A stretch of DNA of 38,452 nucleotides from a virus (Duplodnaviria > Heunggongvirae > Uroviricota > Caudoviricetes), in IMG/VR virus record IMGVR_UViG_2728369592_000010, positions 1 through 38,452 of that record; one strand, written 5' to 3'. The notes beneath the pieces were generated by a model, which worked only from the letters and a program-made list of their open reading frames with translations, did no database searches and was not told the origin of the DNA. Positions 5,491 to 35,894 of the stretch are shown piece after piece (positions within the stretch are counted from its first letter, which is position 1; each line of letters opens with the position of its first letter). Position numbers and translations under genes: made by a program.

Positions 5491-5507
5491 ATTACCTTTC
5501 AGGTAAT
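5491..5507. promoter_or_regulatory. Operator-like palindrome ATTACCTTTCAGGTAAT (TTACC-N5-GGTAA family)
   Basis: Perfect inverted repeat; identical core to the site at 22435-22449. Confidence 0.6.
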
Positions 5508-5543
5508 TTGCAAAACGTGCTGGATAGCAAACAAATTATTTGC

Positions 5544-5563
5544 TACTGTATAAATATACAGTT
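5544..5563. promoter_or_regulatory. LexA (SOS) box TACTGTATAAATATACAGTT
   Basis: CTGT-N8-ACAG with AT-rich spacer, 18/20 match to the E. coli consensus TACTGTATATATATACAGTA; 5-20 bp upstream of the start of the plus-strand small gene. Confidence 0.75.
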
Positions 5564-5568
5564 ATTGC

Positions 5569-5841
5569 ATGGAGAAGATTAAGATGCAGCAGTATCACTA
5601 TCCACTGGAAGACGGATTTACCGAAAGGATTCACACGCCGGGAGGCGTCAGGTCACTGGTGGAGGGATCGCACTTGATGAAATTACTCCGGGATCTCGAT
5701 AAGGATGGATTTAATGTCGATGGCCCACTTGCCGAACTGACTGCACTGATTAACTACGTCACCAGCTCACAGATGTCTATGCAGGATCTGCAAACACATC
5801 TCGACTATTGTGCCGAACAATTACGAAAACAAACCCGGTAA
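5569..5841 (+). CDS. Small SOS-regulated protein, candidate antirepressor (likely start at ATG 5584 after GGAGAAG)
   Basis: Opposite strand to flanking virion genes, own LexA-box promoter and downstream hairpin; 85-90 aa soluble protein with no family I can assign. Confidence 0.6.
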   Translation: MEKIKMQQYHYPLEDGFTERIHTPGGVRSLVEGSHLMKLLRDLDKDGFNVDGPLAELTALINYVTSSQMSMQDLQTHLDYCAEQLRKQTR

Positions 5842-5848
5842 ATTTAAA

Positions 5849-5877
5849 GGCCGCAAGAGCGGCCTGTGACATGTCAC
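5849..5877. terminator. Bidirectional terminator region: hairpin GGCCGC-aaga-GCGGCC followed by palindrome GTGACATGTCAC and a T-run
   Basis: Read directly; sits between the convergent plus-strand small gene and the minus-strand 98-aa gene. Confidence 0.5.
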
Positions 5878-22344: not shown

Positions 22345-22412
22345 ATCAATGACTCCGTACGCAATTAAATTATTACCAATTTAACCACATATGATTTATT
22401 TATCGTAGACAG

Positions 22413-22450
22413 TTGACATTTAACGCACGAATTATTACCTTTCAGGTAAC
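22413..22450 (+). promoter_or_regulatory. Candidate promoter (-35 TTGACA at 22413-22418) overlapped by operator-like palindrome ATTACCTTTCAGGTAAC (22434-22450)
   Basis: Consensus -35 hexamer on the plus strand about 350 nt upstream of the tRNA; operator covers the expected -10/+1 region. Confidence 0.45.
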
Positions 22451-22771
22451 CAAAGAGTTCATTCCGGTTACTAACCTGACTGGCTTGTCGTTAAATTGAA
22501 CAGGTGGAGTGAGCTTTTATTTTGAGCAGTACGGCGTATGGCACATGCGCCGATAGCGGTCTGGATACGTTTAAGGGGCACCCTCCCTTGCTCGGGCAAA
22601 CGAACCAGGTAGCCGGAATGTGCAAGTCGAGCGGTTTTATTCCGCGCACGGGGATTCACCATCCCGGCGATTCGGTGTGACGCCTCGGAAGAGACGAGGG
22701 TACAACGATGAGAGCATTTATGGAGCCGCGACAAAGTGTGGCGCCTTAACAGGCTAAGTGCTCTCAGCGTT

Positions 22772-22848
22772 GTGGCATTAGCTCAGTTGGACAGAGCAAC
22801 CGCCTTCTAAGCGGTTGGTCGCAGGTTCGAATCCTGCATGCCACGCCA
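22772..22848 (+). tRNA. tRNA-Arg (anticodon UCU, reads AGA), phage-encoded, with encoded CCA
   Basis: Manually folded cloverleaf: acceptor GTGGCAT/ATGCCAC, D-stem GCTC/GAGC, anticodon stem ACCGC/GCGGT with loop CTTCTAA (TCT at 22806-22808), T-arm GCAGG-TTCGAAT-CCTGC, discriminator G, CCA; similar to but distinct from host argU as I recall it. Confidence 0.85.
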
Positions 22849-23041: not shown

Positions 23042-23920
23042 ATGACCACAAATTACCTTAAAGGTATAATCATGAAAAACTTTAAGGTAATTAGTATGTT
23101 CGAATCGTTCAAAGAGCTGTTTTTATCTACTGCCAATACTGCCGTGCATCGAGCTAAAAACCCTGTGCTTGGTGCTTTTGTTATGTCCTGGTGCGCCTTC
23201 AACTGGAAATCACTTCTTTATCTATTTTTTAGCAAATCAAATATAATAGATAAAATTTCATACATCTCAGATAACAGCACATGGAAAACTGTTATGTTTT
23301 ATCCATGCTTATCTGTAATTACTATCTGCTGCCTATTACCATGGGTAAACAATATCATTAACGTATGGCAAGCAAAGCCTCTTGATAATAATGACTCAAT
23401 CGAAAATCACCGGAAGGCAAGAAAAATACAACGTGAAACACGGCTACAGAGATTGCTGGCTAAAAAAGACATTACTTACGAAAAAGTAAAAACAGGCGCT
23501 GAAAAAAACATTCAAGACATGAAAGAGGAAATAATTCTTTCAAAAGACAGAATGGGACAACTCACATCTGAATTGAAAGAGAGGGAGACAGAACTGCGCG
23601 CAGAACAAGCTCGTATTTTAGAATTATCTAAGGTTATTGATGAAACAACATCTAAACTAGAAAATCTAGAAAAAGCTCACAAAAATTTAAAAAACGAATA
23701 TGAGTCCTATAAGAAAAACATTCCTTTGGCAACAAATAATACAATTGCTAATGGGCTTGTAGGTCTAAAATCATTACAAGACCTTAATGAGTCCGTAAAG
23801 AAACTTGGCGTTACTGGAATTAACAATCCAGAAATCAATACATTATTGAATAATCCTCTAGTAAATATAAATGGTGGTTTAAATTCCACCTATCAAAGAA
23901 AATTAAAAACACAAAAGTAA
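23042..23920 (+). CDS. AT-rich moron: membrane-anchored coiled-coil protein of unknown function (candidate exclusion/abortive-infection effector); probable start at ATG 23096
   Basis: Clearly AT-rich relative to flanks (by eye about 35% vs about 50% GC); opposite strand to terminase and portal; own -10 TATAAT at 23065-23070 overlapped by near-operator TTACCTTAAAGGTAT (23053-23067); two N-terminal TM helices then about 120-aa coiled coil; uses AGA/AGG Arg codons. Confidence 0.75.
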   Translation: MTTNYLKGIIMKNFKVISMFESFKELFLSTANTAVHRAKNPVLGAFVMSWCAFNWKSLLYLFFSKSNIIDKISYISDNSTWKTVMFYPCLSVITICCLLPWVNNIINVWQAKPLDNNDSIENHRKARKIQRETRLQRLLAKKDITYEKVKTGAEKNIQDMKEEIILSKDRMGQLTSELKERETELRAEQARILELSKVIDETTSKLENLEKAHKNLKNEYESYKKNIPLATNNTIANGLVGLKSLQDLNESVKKLGVTGINNPEINTLLNNPLVNINGGLNSTYQRKLKTQK

Positions 23921-23923
23921 AAA

Positions 23924-25393
23924 TCATTCAAATGGGTCATAGTCTGTTATAGCCCTGCCCTGCTGCTGCCGTGGGTCATTAGTTTTCTTGGCTACCGGGA
24001 AAGCAAACGTCAGCAGTAGCGCATCGCCTTTACCCGGCGAACGCCCAAGCCGCTCTTTGATATCTTCCTTCGGTTCGATAACGATTTTACCGTCCACACG
24101 AACTTTGTACTCTGCCGCCGACAGGTCATCCGCTGTTTCCTGGTCATCCAGCATCCCGCCGAGCCTCAGCCATGTCTTGCATGAGTTGAACATCTCCCCG
24201 CGCTTATTGAGCATCTGCGGGTCAGTAGACGCGCCGCCGAACGGAACAAGTTGCCATGTACGACCCCAGCCGTCACCGATTGACTTCAGACCGGTACCGT
24301 AACCGAAGTCGATGAACACCGCGTCAGCCTGATACTGGTCTTCAAAGTCAGCGATACGCTTTGCCATAATCAGATCGTCAGTGGTCTTGTTGCCGGTCCA
24401 CAGCACCTTACTGTGCAGCCCCTGCCGCAGGTATATCACCGCGTCATCAACGCCTGAGTATGCCGGGTCAACGCCGATTATCACCGGAGCATGTGCAACC
24501 TGCGCAGCGGTGACCACCCGTTTCATTGCCTCGTCAGTAAGTCCGGTAGGGATAAACTGCAATTCAGATGCATCCGGGAATATGCCGCGCACACGGATTT
24601 TAACGAAGTCGCTGTCTTCCCCGTAGTCATCAACCCATTTCTGCAACTGCTGTTTGTTAGTGCCTTCCACCGTCCGGCTGTCAATCTGCGCAGTTTTCCA
24701 GCGGTGTTTATATTTGCGGAAACATTCGCGGAAACGCCCGGTGTTACGTGTAGGGTTTCCGAACGCCACCCAGATAATCTCAGTGTCTTCGTCCGTTAGC
24801 GCCCCCTCAGCAACTTCCCACACCAGATCCGCAATGTTCGACGCTTCATCGAATACCACGATGATGCGTTTGCGCTCGTTGTGTAGTCCGGCGAATGCCT
24901 CAGTGTTGTGCTCAGACCAGGGGATTGCGTCAGCTCGCCACCGCTTGTCGTGCCCAGGATCATTGCTGTACATCGCGGTAGCGGTACAGGTAAACCAGTC
25001 TTTCGTGATAGCAAGGTTCGACCACTTGATAATTTCCGGCCAGGTCTTCGTTCGTAGCTGGTTGTCGGTGTTGGCGGTCACCACGACCTTACAATCCTCG
25101 CAAGTGGACATGCCCCAGTTGATCAGCATTGAGATGAATGCGGATTTACCAATACCGTGACCAGAAGCGCGTGCCAGCATAAGCGGCTGATAGCGCGTCT
25201 CTGGATTCTGCAGGTGATCACGTATCTCTCGGAACGCATCAGCCTGCCACTGACGTGGGCCGGTAGCATGTGCCAGTTCAGTCCCCTCTTCCCCCCACGG
25301 GAACGCATAGAGGGCATAGCCAAGCGGATCGTGAGTGAACCCTGCAATATCCTCGATCAACTGCTCTTCAGGAGATAACGCTGTATCTGTCAC
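23924..25393 (-). CDS. Terminase large subunit
   Basis: 489 aa; N-terminal ATPase features and C-terminal nuclease region; ATGA overlap with small-subunit stop. Confidence 0.9.
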   Translation of the reverse strand: MTDTALSPEEQLIEDIAGFTHDPLGYALYAFPWGEEGTELAHATGPRQWQADAFREIRDHLQNPETRYQPLMLARASGHGIGKSAFISMLINWGMSTCEDCKVVVTANTDNQLRTKTWPEIIKWSNLAITKDWFTCTATAMYSNDPGHDKRWRADAIPWSEHNTEAFAGLHNERKRIIVVFDEASNIADLVWEVAEGALTDEDTEIIWVAFGNPTRNTGRFRECFRKYKHRWKTAQIDSRTVEGTNKQQLQKWVDDYGEDSDFVKIRVRGIFPDASELQFIPTGLTDEAMKRVVTAAQVAHAPVIIGVDPAYSGVDDAVIYLRQGLHSKVLWTGNKTTDDLIMAKRIADFEDQYQADAVFIDFGYGTGLKSIGDGWGRTWQLVPFGGASTDPQMLNKRGEMFNSCKTWLRLGGMLDDQETADDLSAAEYKVRVDGKIVIEPKEDIKERLGRSPGKGDALLLTFAFPVAKKTNDPRQQQGRAITDYDPFE

Positions 25394-25986
25394 TGATTAC
25401 CATCCTGACGTTCTTTGAGTCGCTTCCTGGCTGCTGCTATGCGATCAGCAATTGTCACATTCACATTAACATCCAGACGTTCTTTGAACGCGTTGACATC
25501 AACATGCTTACCAATCAGCTCAAGGTTCTTCACCTTGTCAGGCCATTTAATTTTTTTGAGGATTGTCTCTATCGAATCCTCGTTCATGTTCATGATGGTC
25601 GATGACAGATCAAAGCCACTAAGCGTAGTGCGCCAGATTTTCGGCCACTCACGGATTGGTTTAAGGCTCCCATCGTCGTTGAGGATGTCGATCACGTCCA
25701 TCTGGTCGATCTCCACCAGGCGCATGAGAACGTAATCAGCACTGACGCGCATTCGTTTGTTGCGCTCCTCCATCAACTCGGCAATCCGTTTTTGAATGCG
25801 TTCATCGCGCATCATGACACTGGCTTTAACTGCCGCTGTATTTGGGGAGAATCCTGCGTTAATCGCTGCCTGAGTCTGGTTTTCAGGCGTTTTGATGTAT
25901 GACTGGCAATAAGCCTCCTGCATTGCTGTTAGTGGCTTAAATTGCGTTGATTTGCGTTTATAGGTTTTAGGTTCAGCAGGCATCAT
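25390..25986 (-). CDS. Terminase small subunit (start set at MMPAEP; ORF-track start at 26064 adds a low-complexity extension without SD)
   Basis: Motif AAINAGFSPNTAAVKASVMMRDERIQKRIAE is typical of small terminase DNA-binding domains; GGTGG before the internal ATGs. Confidence 0.75.
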   Translation of the reverse strand: MMPAEPKTYKRKSTQFKPLTAMQEAYCQSYIKTPENQTQAAINAGFSPNTAAVKASVMMRDERIQKRIAELMEERNKRMRVSADYVLMRLVEIDQMDVIDILNDDGSLKPIREWPKIWRTTLSGFDLSSTIMNMNEDSIETILKKIKWPDKVKNLELIGKHVDVNAFKERLDVNVNVTIADRIAAARKRLKERQDGNQ

Positions 25987-25993
25987 AACCACC

Positions 25994-26025
25994 GTGGTAA
26001 TAGTTACCGTTGTGGTAATAGTACC
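25994..26025. repeat. Two direct copies of an everted GGTAA/TTACC element (GTGGTAATAGTTACC and GTGGTAATAGTACC) upstream of the terminase small subunit
   Basis: Read directly; half-sites are the same as the operator family but in everted arrangement with 3-bp spacer. Confidence 0.4.
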
Positions 26026-26096
26026 ATGCAAAATAAAGCCGCCATAGTTGGCGGCAGTATTCAAAACCCATCAAATTCATCATGCATAATCTACTC

Positions 26097-26108
26097 GTGA
26101 CATGTCAC
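26097..26108. repeat. 12-bp perfect palindrome GTGACATGTCAC (second copy at 5866-5877)
   Basis: Identical 12-mers at two loci, each overlapping the TGA stop of a small minus-strand gene at the same palindrome positions. Confidence 0.5.
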
Positions 26109-26443
26109 ACTATTAATTTCGTTTCATGCCAGCCTTTAGTCACCCAGCATTGCGAGTCACCATTACACGGGCATGAATTAACTGGAACTCTCTCGCCGCA
26201 CTTACCGCAACATTTTCTGCTGATCGATTTTATACGCCCGCGCACGCGTGCATCATCCTGGCGGATCAGTAACGCTATATACTCACCAAATTCGTAAGGC
26301 GCACGCCCGGGGCGACGCGTGGCACAGTTACGCTCCAGCATTTCAATTTCCTGAGCATCAAGCACAATTTCCAGCTTACGCACACCAGATGCAGCTTGTC
26401 TGGCTCTCTGAGCGGCTTTGCGCTCTGCTGCTGATTTAGCCAT
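26105..26443 (-). CDS. Small Cys-rich protein (putative zinc-ribbon regulator), last gene before the packaging operon
   Basis: 112 aa; basic N-terminal helix then C-terminal CCGKCG...CPCNGDSQC cysteine cluster. Confidence 0.6.
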   Translation of the reverse strand: MAKSAAERKAAQRARQAASGVRKLEIVLDAQEIEMLERNCATRRPGRAPYEFGEYIALLIRQDDARVRGRIKSISRKCCGKCGERVPVNSCPCNGDSQCWVTKGWHETKLIV

Positions 26444-28217: not shown

Positions 28218-28759
28218 GGTTCCACCTTCTCTATTTGCTTAAGACCGTCTCTCACTGCATTAAGTACGCGTTCCAGATACTGGTATTTCGGGTTTGGTGC
28301 CGTTGGCCAGTCGGCATACCACGGATCATCACCAAAGAGATTCAGCAGTTTGTTACCGACACCGAAACAACAGCAGCTTTCTTTTACGTCATCGGCGTTT
28401 TCCGCCTCGTCCCACATTTCTCGAGCCTGTACCGCGTCGATTTCTCTCTCTCTTCGTAACTTTATGATTTCTGACTTCACGAAAAGCAGATTTGCATCGT
28501 TGTCATCGTCGACCGTGCTTCGCAGTTGAGGGTCGAAATAGCCGATTAGATACTCGTTGCTGACCCGCTTAATGAACGTCTGCACATCATCACCGCCCAT
28601 AGCAAACCAAGCCGCAGTCCACGCTTTTCCGTAGCAGGTGATGGTGATTCTTCCCTTACCAGGTTCGTAGTTTTCAATCATCACTCTAACCGGATCTAGT
28701 CGCTCTGCACCGGTTATAACGAATGACAACACATCAATCTTTTCAACCGTTACACTCAC
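28214..28759 (-). CDS. Hypothetical phage protein
   Basis: 181-aa ORF overlapping both neighbours. Confidence 0.6.
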   Translation of the reverse strand: MSVTVEKIDVLSFVITGAERLDPVRVMIENYEPGKGRITITCYGKAWTAAWFAMGGDDVQTFIKRVSNEYLIGYFDPQLRSTVDDDNDANLLFVKSEIIKLRREREIDAVQAREMWDEAENADDVKESCCCFGVGNKLLNLFGDDPWYADWPTAPNPKYQYLERVLNAVRDGLKQIEKVEP

Positions 28760-29596: not shown

Positions 29597-29673
29597 TTAC
29601 CCCTTAGGTAATTAAAAACCACATAAGACACGAAATCAATAGATTTTAGAATATTTTATTACCTCAAAGGTAA
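29597..29673 (-). promoter_or_regulatory. Promoter-operator cassette: operator TTACCTCAAAGGTAA (29659-29673), -35 TTGATT (29634-29639, minus), 17-bp spacer, -10 TTTAAT, operator TTACCCCTTAGGTAA (29597-29611) overlapping -10/+1 and the SD
   Basis: Same geometry as the plus-strand cassette at 32702-32778. Confidence 0.6.
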
Positions 29674-31674: not shown

Positions 31675-31905
31675 TCATGAGTAGAAGAAGTATGCCAGTT
31701 CTGCTTTTGAGCGCAACCATTGTCTTGATTTACAGGCTTTAAAAAGCCCATTCATCAATACTTTACCTGGCATTTTGCGCTTACCTGTTAAGTGAGTCTG
31801 GATATAGTGACTCGTCGTTCCGGCTTCCTGTGCGAAGGCTTCACGCTCATCCGGAGTAAGTGCAAGCCAGTGCTTTTTGAAATCGAAATGTCCGTTATCG
31901 CTCAT
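31675..31905 (-). CDS. Cro-like small HTH regulator, first gene of the lytic-direction operon
   Basis: 76 aa with HTH-like segment EREAFAQEAGTTSHYIQTHLTGKR; divergent from the repressor gene across an operator cluster. Confidence 0.6.
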   Translation of the reverse strand: MSDNGHFDFKKHWLALTPDEREAFAQEAGTTSHYIQTHLTGKRKMPGKVLMNGLFKACKSRQWLRSKAELAYFFYS

Positions 31906-31941: not shown

Positions 31942-32004
31942 TCACCCATAAGGTAACAAAAATCAAGGATAGTTACCTATGGGGTGCATTTACCTGTTGG
32001 GTAA
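31942..32004. promoter_or_regulatory. Tripartite operator cluster between Cro-like and repressor genes: TCACCCATAAGGTAA (31942-31956), TTACCTATGGGGTGC (31973-31987), TTACCTGTTGGGTAA (31990-32004)
   Basis: Three TTACC-N5-GGTAA-family sites in the 154-bp divergent intergenic region. Confidence 0.6.
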
Positions 32005-32059: not shown

Positions 32060-32644
32060 ATGAAAAGTATCCAGGACGTCCGCAGGCAAAATCTCAACGA
32101 CTTGATCGACCGTGAATTCAATGGTGTTCAGACGCGGATGGCAGAAAAACTTGGAACTCAGGCAAATCTGGTAAACCGCTGGGCTCTTGGCAAGAAGGTT
32201 ATCGGCGACCAGGTTGCGCGAAAAATTGAAGCTGCCGCCAATAAACCCCGTAACTGGCTTGATATCGATCGCTCGCTTTCTCAGGAAGGTTTTCAGCCTG
32301 TCGGCCCAAGCGACATTGGTCAGCTAGCGGCTCACAACCTGGAACGCTGGATGAGCGAAAGCCGCGACCTTTCAACACAGGGAAAACTTCACCGCGCATC
32401 CGGCGTCGCCCAGGTGACAATCAGCCGCCTGTTAAACAATGAGGTCAGCGTTTCCATTTCCACCCTGGAGAATGTTGCATCCGCATTCGGGCGTCACGGA
32501 TATGAACTACTGATTCACCCGCACGACCCTGCGACTATCAACTATGACCGCTCACGCTACGCATTGTTACCCGAAACCGAGAAAGCAAAGATCGAAAGTT
32601 ACATTGAATTTGTCATCAACCAGAACGAAAAAAGCAAACAATAA
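32060..32644 (+). CDS. Immunity repressor candidate with two tandem XRE-type HTH domains and no recognisable S24 autocleavage domain
   Basis: HTH-like segments at about residues 20-65 and 110-150; no Ala-Gly cleavage site or Ser/Lys peptidase motifs seen; divergent from the Cro-like gene. Confidence 0.7.
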   Translation: MKSIQDVRRQNLNDLIDREFNGVQTRMAEKLGTQANLVNRWALGKKVIGDQVARKIEAAANKPRNWLDIDRSLSQEGFQPVGPSDIGQLAAHNLERWMSESRDLSTQGKLHRASGVAQVTISRLLNNEVSVSISTLENVASAFGRHGYELLIHPHDPATINYDRSRYALLPETEKAKIESYIEFVINQNEKSKQ

Positions 32645-32701: not shown

Positions 32702-32778
32702 TTACCTTACGGGTAATTTTTTTAACTCATATCTATTGACACCAAACCAAATAAGCATAATTATTACCCCAACGGTAA
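32702..32778 (+). promoter_or_regulatory. Early-left promoter-operator cassette: operator TTACCTTACGGGTAA (32702-32716), -35 TTGACA (32736-32741), 17-bp spacer, -10 AATTAT, operator TTACCCCAACGGTAA (32764-32778)
   Basis: Read directly; geometry mirrors the minus-strand cassette at 29597-29673. Confidence 0.6.
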
Positions 32779-33455: not shown

Positions 33456-34273
33456 ATACTGGCATCTATTTCGACATCAGCAATGAGGACTACCACGCCG
33501 GTGACGGCGTGAGTAAGTCGCAACTGGACATGGTTGCCAAGAATCCGGCGCTTCTTAAATGGGTTCAGGCAGCACCAGAAGACGAAGAGAAAAAGTCTGC
33601 ACTAGATATGGGAACTGCATTGCACTGTCTGCTTCTTGAACCTGGAGAATTCGACAAACGCTTCATTGTTTCACCAAAGTTCGATCGTCGGACGAAACAA
33701 GGTAAAGCTGACGAAGAAGCATTTCTTCGTGATGTAGCGGATATGGGGATTGCGGTACTTGATGCCGAGCAGTGGCGGAAACTGGAGCTGATGCGTGATA
33801 GCGCAATGGCTCACCCGGCGGCACGCTGGATGCTGGAAGCACCTGGTTACTGCGAAGCATCAATGTACTGGAACGATGAAGAGACTGGTGAGTTGTGCCG
33901 CATTCGTCCAGACAAATGGCTGAACGAGCACAACGTGATCGTCGACGTGAAAAAGGTTGCAGATATGGACCGTTTTGCACGCCACATCGAGGAATTCCGC
34001 TACCACGTGCAGGACGCAATGTACCGCGAAGGCGCAATGAGGGTTACTGGTCAGCCGCATGGTTTTTTCTTTCTTGCCGTGAGCGAAAGCATTGATTGTG
34101 GTCGGTATCCGGTACGCGTGTTCGAGCTGGATGCGCCGGATGTCGATGCCGGGCACGCTCTGTTCCGCCGGGATCTGAATACCTATCACGAATGCCGCAT
34201 CAGCGATGAATGGGGCGGCGTGGAAATTATTAAACGCCCTGAGTGGGCACGCAAACAGGATATGTACGTATGA
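33452..34273 (+). CDS. RecE-like PD-(D/E)xK exonuclease (DUF3799-type)
   Basis: N-terminus GIYFDISNEDYHAGDGVSKSQL and D...IVDVKKV motif typical of the exonuclease VIII C-terminal domain family; immediately upstream of recT. Confidence 0.7.
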   Translation: MNTGIYFDISNEDYHAGDGVSKSQLDMVAKNPALLKWVQAAPEDEEKKSALDMGTALHCLLLEPGEFDKRFIVSPKFDRRTKQGKADEEAFLRDVADMGIAVLDAEQWRKLELMRDSAMAHPAARWMLEAPGYCEASMYWNDEETGELCRIRPDKWLNEHNVIVDVKKVADMDRFARHIEEFRYHVQDAMYREGAMRVTGQPHGFFFLAVSESIDCGRYPVRVFELDAPDVDAGHALFRRDLNTYHECRISDEWGGVEIIKRPEWARKQDMYV

Positions 34274-35594: not shown

Positions 35595-35894
35595 GTGAGA
35601 AAGTTAAGCCGACTTGAAAAATATCACATGAATAAGGTTTCAATGCGCAGTCCGTCAAAGATTGTCGCCGTTACTCCTGCGGCGATAGAGATCGAAAAAC
35701 GCGCGATTGAAAGAGAGAAAAAAGGGCAGTTCCGCATTGCCGCTCACCTTTGGCTTCAGTGTATGGATGTTGCTTCTGGTGATGTTGAGCGTGCAAGGAT
35801 CGCGGTTCGCAGGGACCAATGTATCACAAAAGGTAACGGCCTTCGCCGTGGAGACTATAGCGGTATAGGATGTTGCGGGGTGGTTTATGACTAA
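35595..35894 (+). CDS. Small regulator-like protein (possibly PerC-like), GTG start
   Basis: 99-aa ORF with SD GAGGG; weak resemblance to prophage PerC-family activators. Confidence 0.45.
   Translation: MRKLSRLEKYHMNKVSMRSPSKIVAVTPAAIEIEKRAIEREKKGQFRIAAHLWLQCMDVASGDVERARIAVRRDQCITKGNGLRRGDYSGIGCCGVVYD

Follow-up and report, generated by a model that had tools for sequence, protein, structure and literature searches.

A probable Rep-repressed promoter behind an intrinsic terminator ahead of the terminase genes of a phiV10/epsilon15-like prophage, and a palindrome linked to the neighboring Cys-rich gene

The window analyzed here, 38,452 nucleotides (nt) of the IMG/VR virus record IMGVR_UViG_2728369592_000010, is a Uetakevirus, a prophage of the phiV10/epsilon15-like type. 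We focused on the short control region ahead of its terminase genes, terS and terL. This region is probably a sigma-70 promoter of the extended −10 type, insulated by an intrinsic terminator from the operon before it and repressed by the phage immunity repressor, Rep. A 12-nt palindrome at the upstream edge of the region appears to stand outside this terS control module and to travel with the 3′ end of the preceding gene, which encodes a Cys-rich protein. The 1.1 kb around the control region are 98–99.9% identical to the Escherichia phages HEMP4, ZX5, TL-2011b, and PAS61, and match phiV10, Tyrion, and epsilon15-like Salmonella phages more remotely. A search of 5,426 complete E. coli genomes recovered the control region itself (window 25960–26130) from 502, nearly all at 95% identity or above, and almost always on the chromosome.

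All genes around the control region lie on the minus strand. A NinX-like gene (26789–26436) is located 5′ of the gene for the Cys-rich protein (26105–26443; 112 amino acids, PHROG 536), which is the final gene of the early-right operon. It is followed by terS (25390–25983; Terminase_2, Pfam PF03592, E=1e-29) and terL (25393–23924). The control region is thus placed 3′ of the final early-right gene and 5′ of terS, and the gap of about 120 bp reported in the initial annotation agrees with the coordinates of the Cys-rich open reading frame (26443–26105) and of terS. Read along the transcribed strand, it begins with the palindrome GTGTGACATGTCAC (26108–26097) and a spacer of 41 nt, continues with GCCGCCAACTATGGCGGC, TTTATTTT, and GCA TGg TACTAT, and ends with TTACCACAACGGTAA, cta, TTACCACGGTGGTTA, tg, and the terS ATG. 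We take this ATG (25983–25981), which is aligned with the sole ATG of the relatives, as the start of terS. With the start called by the program, a TTG at 26064, the reading frame would cross the terminator as well as both operators. In phiV10 (41–715) and 66FD, terS is annotated from the equivalent of this upstream start, which adds about 27 residues (…TITTTVTITTVV…) coded by the terminator and the operators.

The repeats just ahead of terS had initially been described as two direct copies of an everted GGTAA-tag-TTACC element, with the half-sites of the phage operator family in opposite arrangement. The sequences exist, yet the everted reading is out of register. There is one perfect everted unit, GGTAATAGTTACC at 25996–26008, while the supposed second copy at 26014–26025 reads GGTAATAGTACC and misses one T. 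The true mechanical repeat is an 11-mer, GTGGTAATAGT, present twice with an offset of 18 bp. Read in register, the half-sites form two tandem TTACC-N5-GGTAA sites of the normal arrangement. The everted look is a registration artefact, because the unit straddles two adjacent operators, running from the right half-site of the first across a 3-nt linker into the left half-site of the second. In the relatives, this linker varies on the transcribed strand (CTA, CAA, TTA, TTAT, or TAAAA).

Both sites match the operator motif (A)TTACC-N5-GGTAA(T), which is also annotated in epsilon15. The putative distal operator, TTACCGTTGTGGTAA at 26004–26018, is perfect, and would span approximately positions −7 to +8 of the proposed promoter. 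Its half-sites are invariant in the relatives and its spacer is variable. The putative proximal operator, TAACCACCGTGGTAA at 25986–26000, has one mismatch and lies 18 bp from the distal one. It spans the terS Shine-Dalgarno sequence GGTGG (25993–25989) and ends 2 nt 5′ of the terS ATG. In the relatives, it is the weaker and more variable of the two, with TTACC, TTACT, TTGCT, or TTTTC on one side, and GGTTA or GGTAA on the other.

These two operators belong to a family that is dispersed over the whole window. With up to one mismatch, TTACC-N5-GGTAA occurs at 11 sites, against 0.73 expected, and not one of 100 shuffled sequences reached 11. All 11 sites are intergenic or on start codons, and besides the terS pair there are nine further intergenic places with the motif. 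In the P22-like control phage Kapi1, the motif was not found except for a single match with one mismatch. Furthermore, the motif forms a cluster between a repressor gene, rep (32060–32644, plus strand), and a divergent cro-like gene (31675–31905), with sites at 31942–31956, 31973–31987 (two mismatches), and 31990–32004. The cluster thus holds a 17-bp tandem pair and a third site at 31 bp, a pattern (17/30) which epsilon15 and SPC32N repeat. The Rep protein of the window, the presumed binder of these operators, is a full-length match to SPC32H Rep (5D50_A, E=3.5e-42). Its counterpart, the antirepressor Ant (5569–5841, plus strand), matches 5D50_E (E=4.4e-47). The intergenic stretch upstream of ant (5492–5568) carries a near-consensus LexA box, tactgtataaatatacagtt, and a Rep operator (5492–5506). 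It is common to ant and the divergent tailspike gene, and SPC32N, epsilon15, and Tyrion are laid out alike.

That Rep binds the terS operators we infer from this family and from the homology. SPC32H-type Rep is described as a tetramer on palindromic DNA (PMC9638917), which is consistent with paired operators. In phage ZX5, 98% identical, overexpression of Rep lowers the endolysin and holin transcripts by 99.97–99.99% (PMC9782041), which is compatible with a direct or indirect control of late units by Rep. Because epsilon15, SPC32N, and Tyrion share the TTACC half-sites, a covariation comparison between heteroimmune phages had no power to separate Rep from another binder.

Upstream of the operators lies an element that the initial annotation did not mention, the intrinsic terminator of the early-right operon (26030–26055, minus strand). 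On the transcribed strand, it consists of a 7-bp stem with six G-C pairs (GCCGCCA/TGGCGGC), a 4-nt ACTA loop (stem and loop at 26055–26038), and a U-tract, TTTATTTT (26037–26030). The terminator is kept in epsilon15, SPC32N, Tyrion, 66FD, and the loci L203–L207, with one compensating change from G-C to G-U at locus L017. A rho-independent terminator is annotated at the same place in the epsilon15 and phiV10 records. Together with the palindromic operators, it accounts for the strong RNA fold z-score of the region (−4.1). The only match to a known RNA family was rseX, which was rejected as below threshold (27.8 bits against a gathering score of 50 bits, E=0.7).

Between the terminator and terS lies the proposed extended −10, TGgTACTAT (26018–26026, minus strand), composed of a TG at 26026–26025, placed one base before the hexamer TACTAT at 26023–26018. 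Its last T is also the first base of the distal operator (TACTAT/TACC). There is no −35 element, since the terminator fills that position, and transcription would start near 26011–26013. Across 25 non-redundant relatives, plus another six species, the TG, TA, and TAT of this block are invariant. The variable positions are the n of TGn (G, T, or A), the third position of the hexamer (C, T, or G), the operator spacers, and the linker; at two loci the hexamer reads TATTAT, which is nearer to the consensus. The conservation extends to lineages with upstream gene insertions. BUCT554, L202, and L204 carry a umuD-like gene with its own LexA box in place of the terminator, and retain TGnTAnTAT and two operators at terS. 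In ST512-KPC3phi13.3, the insertion lies between the palindrome and the terminator; the Cys-rich gene keeps its palindrome, and terminator, −10, and operators remain next to terS. The suggestion in the initial annotation of a late-promoter architecture is therefore supported in a more ordinary form, as a conserved TGnTAnTAT between terminator and terS, overlapped by operators of the immunity type.

The same register of −10 and operator is found at two canonical promoters of the window. One is the early-left promoter module (32702–32778, plus strand), in which the rep terminator is followed by an operator (32702–32716), TTGACA-17-AATTAT, and a second operator (32764–32778). The other lies in the early-right operon (29597–29673, minus strand), and consists of a terminator, an operator (29659–29673), TTGATT-17-TTTAAT, an operator (29597–29611), and an ATG. 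In both (TTGACA-17-AATTAT/TACC at 32739–32778, and TTGATT-17-TTTAAT/TACC at 29637–29597 on the minus strand), the final T of the −10 is the initial T of TTACC, a feature conserved in four genomes. The operators of each module are 62 bp apart, and both modules, including this spacing, are conserved in epsilon15, SPC32N, and Tyrion. Operator pairs at 62 bp which bracket canonical promoters suggest looping of a Rep tetramer around the promoter. A further promoter-like site, TAGACA-18-AATTAT/TACC (within window 22406–22848), overlaps an operator at 22435–22449 and points in the plus-strand direction. It faces a tRNA-Arg(TCT) gene (22772–22848) and a reverse-oriented accessory gene (approximately 23072–23920, PHROG 4780), the ribosome-binding site of which carries an operator at 23053–23067.

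The same sequences could be read without any promoter. In that case, the operators would act only as a Rep roadblock behind the terminator, similar to a stoperator, and in the lytic cycle terS would be transcribed by read-through from the early-right operon. Such a role would fit the lack of a −35 and the position of the operators, directly 3′ of the terminator and over the leader. It would also fit BUCT554, L202, and L204, in which no terminator stands between the LexA-controlled insert and terS, leaving Rep as the sole barrier. However, the terminator of the window is strong and conserved, so that read-through would require an antiterminator, and none was recognized. Moreover, a roadblock leaves the invariance of TG-n-TA-n-TAT outside the operator core unexplained, as well as the identical −10/operator register at two clear promoters. 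A region with operators and no promoter is therefore unlikely in our view, although the two roles are compatible and not mutually exclusive.

If terS is indeed preceded by a Rep-repressed promoter, its control could work as follows. The intrinsic terminator would close the early-right operon, immediately before the extended −10 promoter. In the lysogen, a Rep tetramer on the operator pair, 18 bp from center to center, would mask the leader as well as the −10/+1 region, and any polymerase escaping the terminator would be obstructed too. Once the LexA-controlled Ant removed Rep, terS and terL would be transcribed from their own promoter. The terS site would then be one member of a Rep regulon, with an operator before nearly every transcription unit, both early and late.

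Several points weigh against a Rep-repressed promoter at this place. A consensus promoter scan did not call it, and found no −35 match. Part of the TAT could be conserved as an operator flank, as an A is favored before TTACC, and only about six independent lineages stand behind the −10 conservation. The proximal operator is degenerate in some relatives (TTTTC...GTTTA in ST512), and the operator “pair” may be one strong site next to a sequence constrained by its Shine-Dalgarno function. Furthermore, early and late units would not be separated in time by a promoter that answers to Rep alone; this is unusual in a temperate tailed phage, and an extra factor may be needed. Finally, a literature search, with the primary SPC32H and epsilon15 papers outside its reach, returned no transcription-start, binding, or reporter data for the genus.

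The repeats had also been proposed to form a packaging-recognition architecture, and either they or the palindrome could in principle be a pac site, or cosB-like sites for the small terminase. The location just 5′ of terS resembles lambda cosB, and the phiV10 and Tyrion records begin at or near the palindrome. We nevertheless regard a packaging site as very improbable, and found no support for it in the repeats. Their half-sites belong to the repressor, and recur at nine other intergenic loci. The palindrome is present in two to three copies per genome, also in cos phages (N15, P2-like), which have their ends elsewhere. Neither is thus a unique site, and the starts of the records are conventional. 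The phiV10 start, which we considered as a genome end, is simply the base after the stop codon of gp55. The Tyrion start, at the center of the palindrome, was rejected too. Tyrion virion DNA is circularly permuted and terminally redundant (PMC5754475), which makes its record start arbitrary and uninformative on a site here.

The palindrome GTGACATGTCAC of the initial annotation is present. It lies at 26097–26108, across the TGA stop codon of the Cys-rich gene (G-TGA-C), and 41 nt 5′ of the terminator. This copy is invariant in the 25 non-redundant relatives. A second exact 12-nt copy, with a chance expectation of approximately 0.002, lies at 5866–5877. It likewise overlaps a TGA stop codon, in this case that of the final late-operon gene (6170–5874, minus strand), and abuts a terminator (5865–5848 plus a T-run) sited between this gene and the convergent ant. 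The layout of the second copy is repeated in epsilon15 (19517), SPC32N (19634), and Tyrion (20377). These three phages have three exact copies each, placed after the last gene of a unit and beside a terminator-type hairpin, the stem of which is imperfect at the epsilon15 copy at 2142.

We extended the comparison to 93 non-redundant loci of Uetakevirus, P2-like, and N15-like phages. In 81 of them, the first base of GTGAC-NN-GTCAC immediately precedes the stop codon of the Cys-rich gene; the remaining 259.5 kb of flanks contained no occurrence. The last codon of the gene varies (GTG, TTG, GCG, CTG, ATG, CCG), which indicates a constraint on the DNA and not on the protein. In Yersinia P2-like phages, GTGACGCGTCAC lies on the stop, followed by a degenerate copy and then by a terminator. 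Vibrio phages carry GTGACACGTCAC about 230 nt downstream of the Cys-rich homologue. In N15, GTGACTGGTCAC lies on the gp46 stop. The N15 genome (locus L208) has three exact GTGACTGGTCAC sites, at 28550, 33237, and 39269, against approximately 0.04 expected; one of them is placed on the gp46 stop, another 115 nt before the annotated terminator after gene 33, and another inside repA. We considered whether the palindrome is the SopB centromere of N15 and F (16-bp TGSGACC-NN-GGTCSCA), and rejected this, as N15 has four separate sites of that type (TGCGACCnnGGTCGCA, at 33480, 35931, 41125, and 45562), distinct from the three GTGACTGGTCAC copies.

Nine further representatives of distant clades, corresponding to ten loci (L210 and L211 encode the same protein), were sampled. 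The palindrome lies 36 nt inside a C-terminally extended reading frame in a Mu-like phage (L209), 1 nt past the TAG stop at L213, and, with one and two mismatches, respectively, just past the stop at L214 and L216. At L217, it is found 140 nt downstream, and it is absent from the five remaining loci, which encode four proteins (L210, L211, L212, L215, and L218). L209 and L212, both metagenomic Mu-like contigs, have a GemA-family gene directly after the Cys-rich homologue, that is, at the end of a Mu-type early region. Extra genes directly 3′ of the palindrome occur in L003 (BUCT554), L005 (ST512-KPC3phi13.3), L202, L204, and L067; in L003, L202, and L204, the insert is the umuD-like gene, which brings a LexA-box promoter of its own, and other genes are inserted elsewhere. 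With these insertions, the palindrome marks a boundary of recombination or mosaicism. The literature search retrieved no phage-related paper that contains one of the palindrome sequences.

The tight linkage of gene and site raises the question of whether the palindrome is the DNA site of the PHROG 536 Cys-rich protein, whatever its role. This is the simplest account of the sequence comparisons, and we give it roughly even chances. The initial annotation had suggested a check of whether the Cys-rich protein binds the control region; such binding gains indirect support with respect to the palindrome, but none for the GGTAA/TTACC repeats. The protein is assigned to PHROG 536, “transcriptional regulator”, with E=1.7e-54, and its homologues include phiV10 gp55, epsilon15 gp49, and N15 gp46. 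Profile searches found no Pfam, NCBIfam, or PDB relative. The family is small, with 210 representatives at 50% clustering, and has a conserved RRPGRxPY motif and five invariant cysteines (C40, C79, C82, C91, and C99), two of which form a Cys79-x2-Cys82 pair. An AlphaFold2 model was poor (predicted local distance difference test score, pLDDT, 66.8), and Foldseek with this model gave no match at E≤0.001. The order of secondary-structure elements is similar to that of ribbon-helix-helix proteins, which is suggestive only; the putative strand residues differ between clades and the half-site is constant.

The Cys-rich gene stands where lambda-type phages would have a late regulator. No Q-like antiterminator or late activator had been recognized in the initial annotation, and this holds after scanning the neighboring and early-left proteins. 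No Q-family gene lies directly upstream of the terminator, and no recognizable Q, Ogr, or Mor/C-type regulator is encoded by phiV10/epsilon15-like phages. We also considered, and rejected, the Cys-rich protein as an activator of the P2 Ogr/Delta type, or as a substitute for Ogr. It has no match to Pfam Ogr_Delta, and the Yersinia P2-like phage with a Cys-rich homologue also has a 72-amino-acid regulator after gpD, in the Ogr position. A role as master late regulator is further weakened by N15, which has its own “late transcription activator”, gp40, and a late promoter/terminator. Another candidate late-gene regulator is a PHROG 868 “transcriptional activator” (99 amino acids) in the early-left operon (window 35595–35894).

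One possible role for the Cys-rich protein is on termination itself. Bound to palindromes before terminators, it would modulate termination in either direction, and would gate read-through into terS from the early operon, and into the tailspike and lysis genes from the late operon, as a functional substitute for Q. The Cys-rich gene is the last before the late region, and is tightly linked to the site, and no Q-like protein was found. An intrinsic terminator follows the palindrome by 1–41 nt at both sites of the window, as it does at most of those in epsilon15, SPC32N, and Tyrion, and by 57 nt in the Yersinia clade. However, the distance between palindrome and terminator is variable (1, 4, 24, 41, 57, and 115 nt), and reaches 400–500 bp for the terS terminator in those relatives that carry an insertion. 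The N15 clade and L067 have no terminator at this place; their palindrome directly adjoins the ribosome-binding site of the next gene, and in N15 one copy falls within repA. In addition, N15 has its Q-like gp40 with the late promoter/terminator, the Yersinia P2-like phage has its Ogr-like gene, and the structure model of the protein is poor, with no fold match. Such a Q substitute appears improbable to us. As a broader notion, GTGAC-NN-GTCAC and the PHROG 536 zinc protein could form a regulatory module that labels transcription-unit ends ahead of intrinsic terminators, and that in the Q-less phiV10/epsilon15-like phages would decide between stopping and reading on into the packaging and tail/lysis genes; this, too, we consider doubtful at best.

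Alternatively, the palindrome could be part of a promoter (GTGACA-18-CATGAT, 26108–26079) that produces a short terminated leader, as lambda PR′-tR′ does. The two hexamers match 9 of 12 positions in the consensus scan, and epsilon15-type relatives have GTGACA-17-TAAATT. Yet the scan gave two promoter-like sites, against 3.0 expected by chance, and a 6-nt indel between lineages abolishes the hexamer spacing, so that no conserved promoter remains between the regulator-like gene and the terminator. Moreover, the terminator hairpin would start within a few nt of the transcript start. We give a leader promoter hardly any credence. In the order of its elements, the region is similar to the lambda Q/PR′/tR′ arrangement: the final gene ahead of the late genes is regulator-like, ends in a DNA element, and is followed by a terminator. 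It differs from lambda in lacking Q-family homology and a conserved promoter upstream of the terminator, and in the apparent presence of a separate promoter for the late genes downstream of it.

The Rep-repressed promoter proposed here resembles several known systems more closely. The curated epsilon15 record (RefSeq NC_004775.2) has a “protein_bind: repressor” feature at 12–27, ahead of terS at 47, and at six other loci, as well as a rho-independent terminator after gp49 (39646–39671). The window agrees with epsilon15 in the homologous position, the operator type (TTACCAAAACGGTAA), the same terminator hairpin after the gp49 homologue, and the dispersed repressor sites before the same transcription units. 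Unlike our analysis, the epsilon15 record marks one site, with no proximal operator, extended −10, or palindrome, and in the phiV10 record only terminators are annotated. With the Rep-Ant switch of SPC32H (PDB 5D50/5D4Z), the window shares both proteins, as full-length homologues, and the LexA box before ant. Tetrameric Rep on palindromic sites fits the paired operators of the window, at spacings of 17–18 bp or 62 bp; as far as PMC9638917 and PMC9986798 relate it, the SPC32H work (Kim and Ryu 2013; Kim et al. 2016) concerns the immunity switch and not the packaging operon.

Repressors with dispersed operators are found in other temperate phages as well, such as P1 C1, coliphage 186 CI at pB, and gp71 of mycobacteriophage L5 with its stoperators. 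As in these phages, one repressor in the window has many sites beyond the immunity region, including late or late-control units. The L5 stoperators are asymmetric, number about 30, are biased in orientation, and lie within transcribed regions. In contrast, the 11 sites of the window are symmetric and mostly at promoters. Coliphage 186 CI differs in that it represses the gene of a late activator, and not structural operons.

Since the epsilon15 record has a repressor site and a terminator at this position, most of the main finding is not new; the terS control region belongs, as an ordinary member, to a regulon previously outlined for that phage. The new part is the palindrome, as a separate element linked to the Cys-rich gene. 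Our literature search found no account of the way in which packaging and structural genes are turned on in phiV10/epsilon15-like phages. The operators point to a flat arrangement, in which an antirepressor-sensitive repressor sits directly on early and late promoters, each insulated by a terminator. That Uetakevirus, P2-like, N15-like, and Mu-like phages have the palindrome where the Cys-rich gene ends indicates a probable, still putative, protein–DNA pair for an uncharacterized protein family. For the flat arrangement, the proposed terS promoter offers a defined place to test it. If it is true, the timing of induction in phiV10/epsilon15-like phages would rest on something other than a classical cascade.

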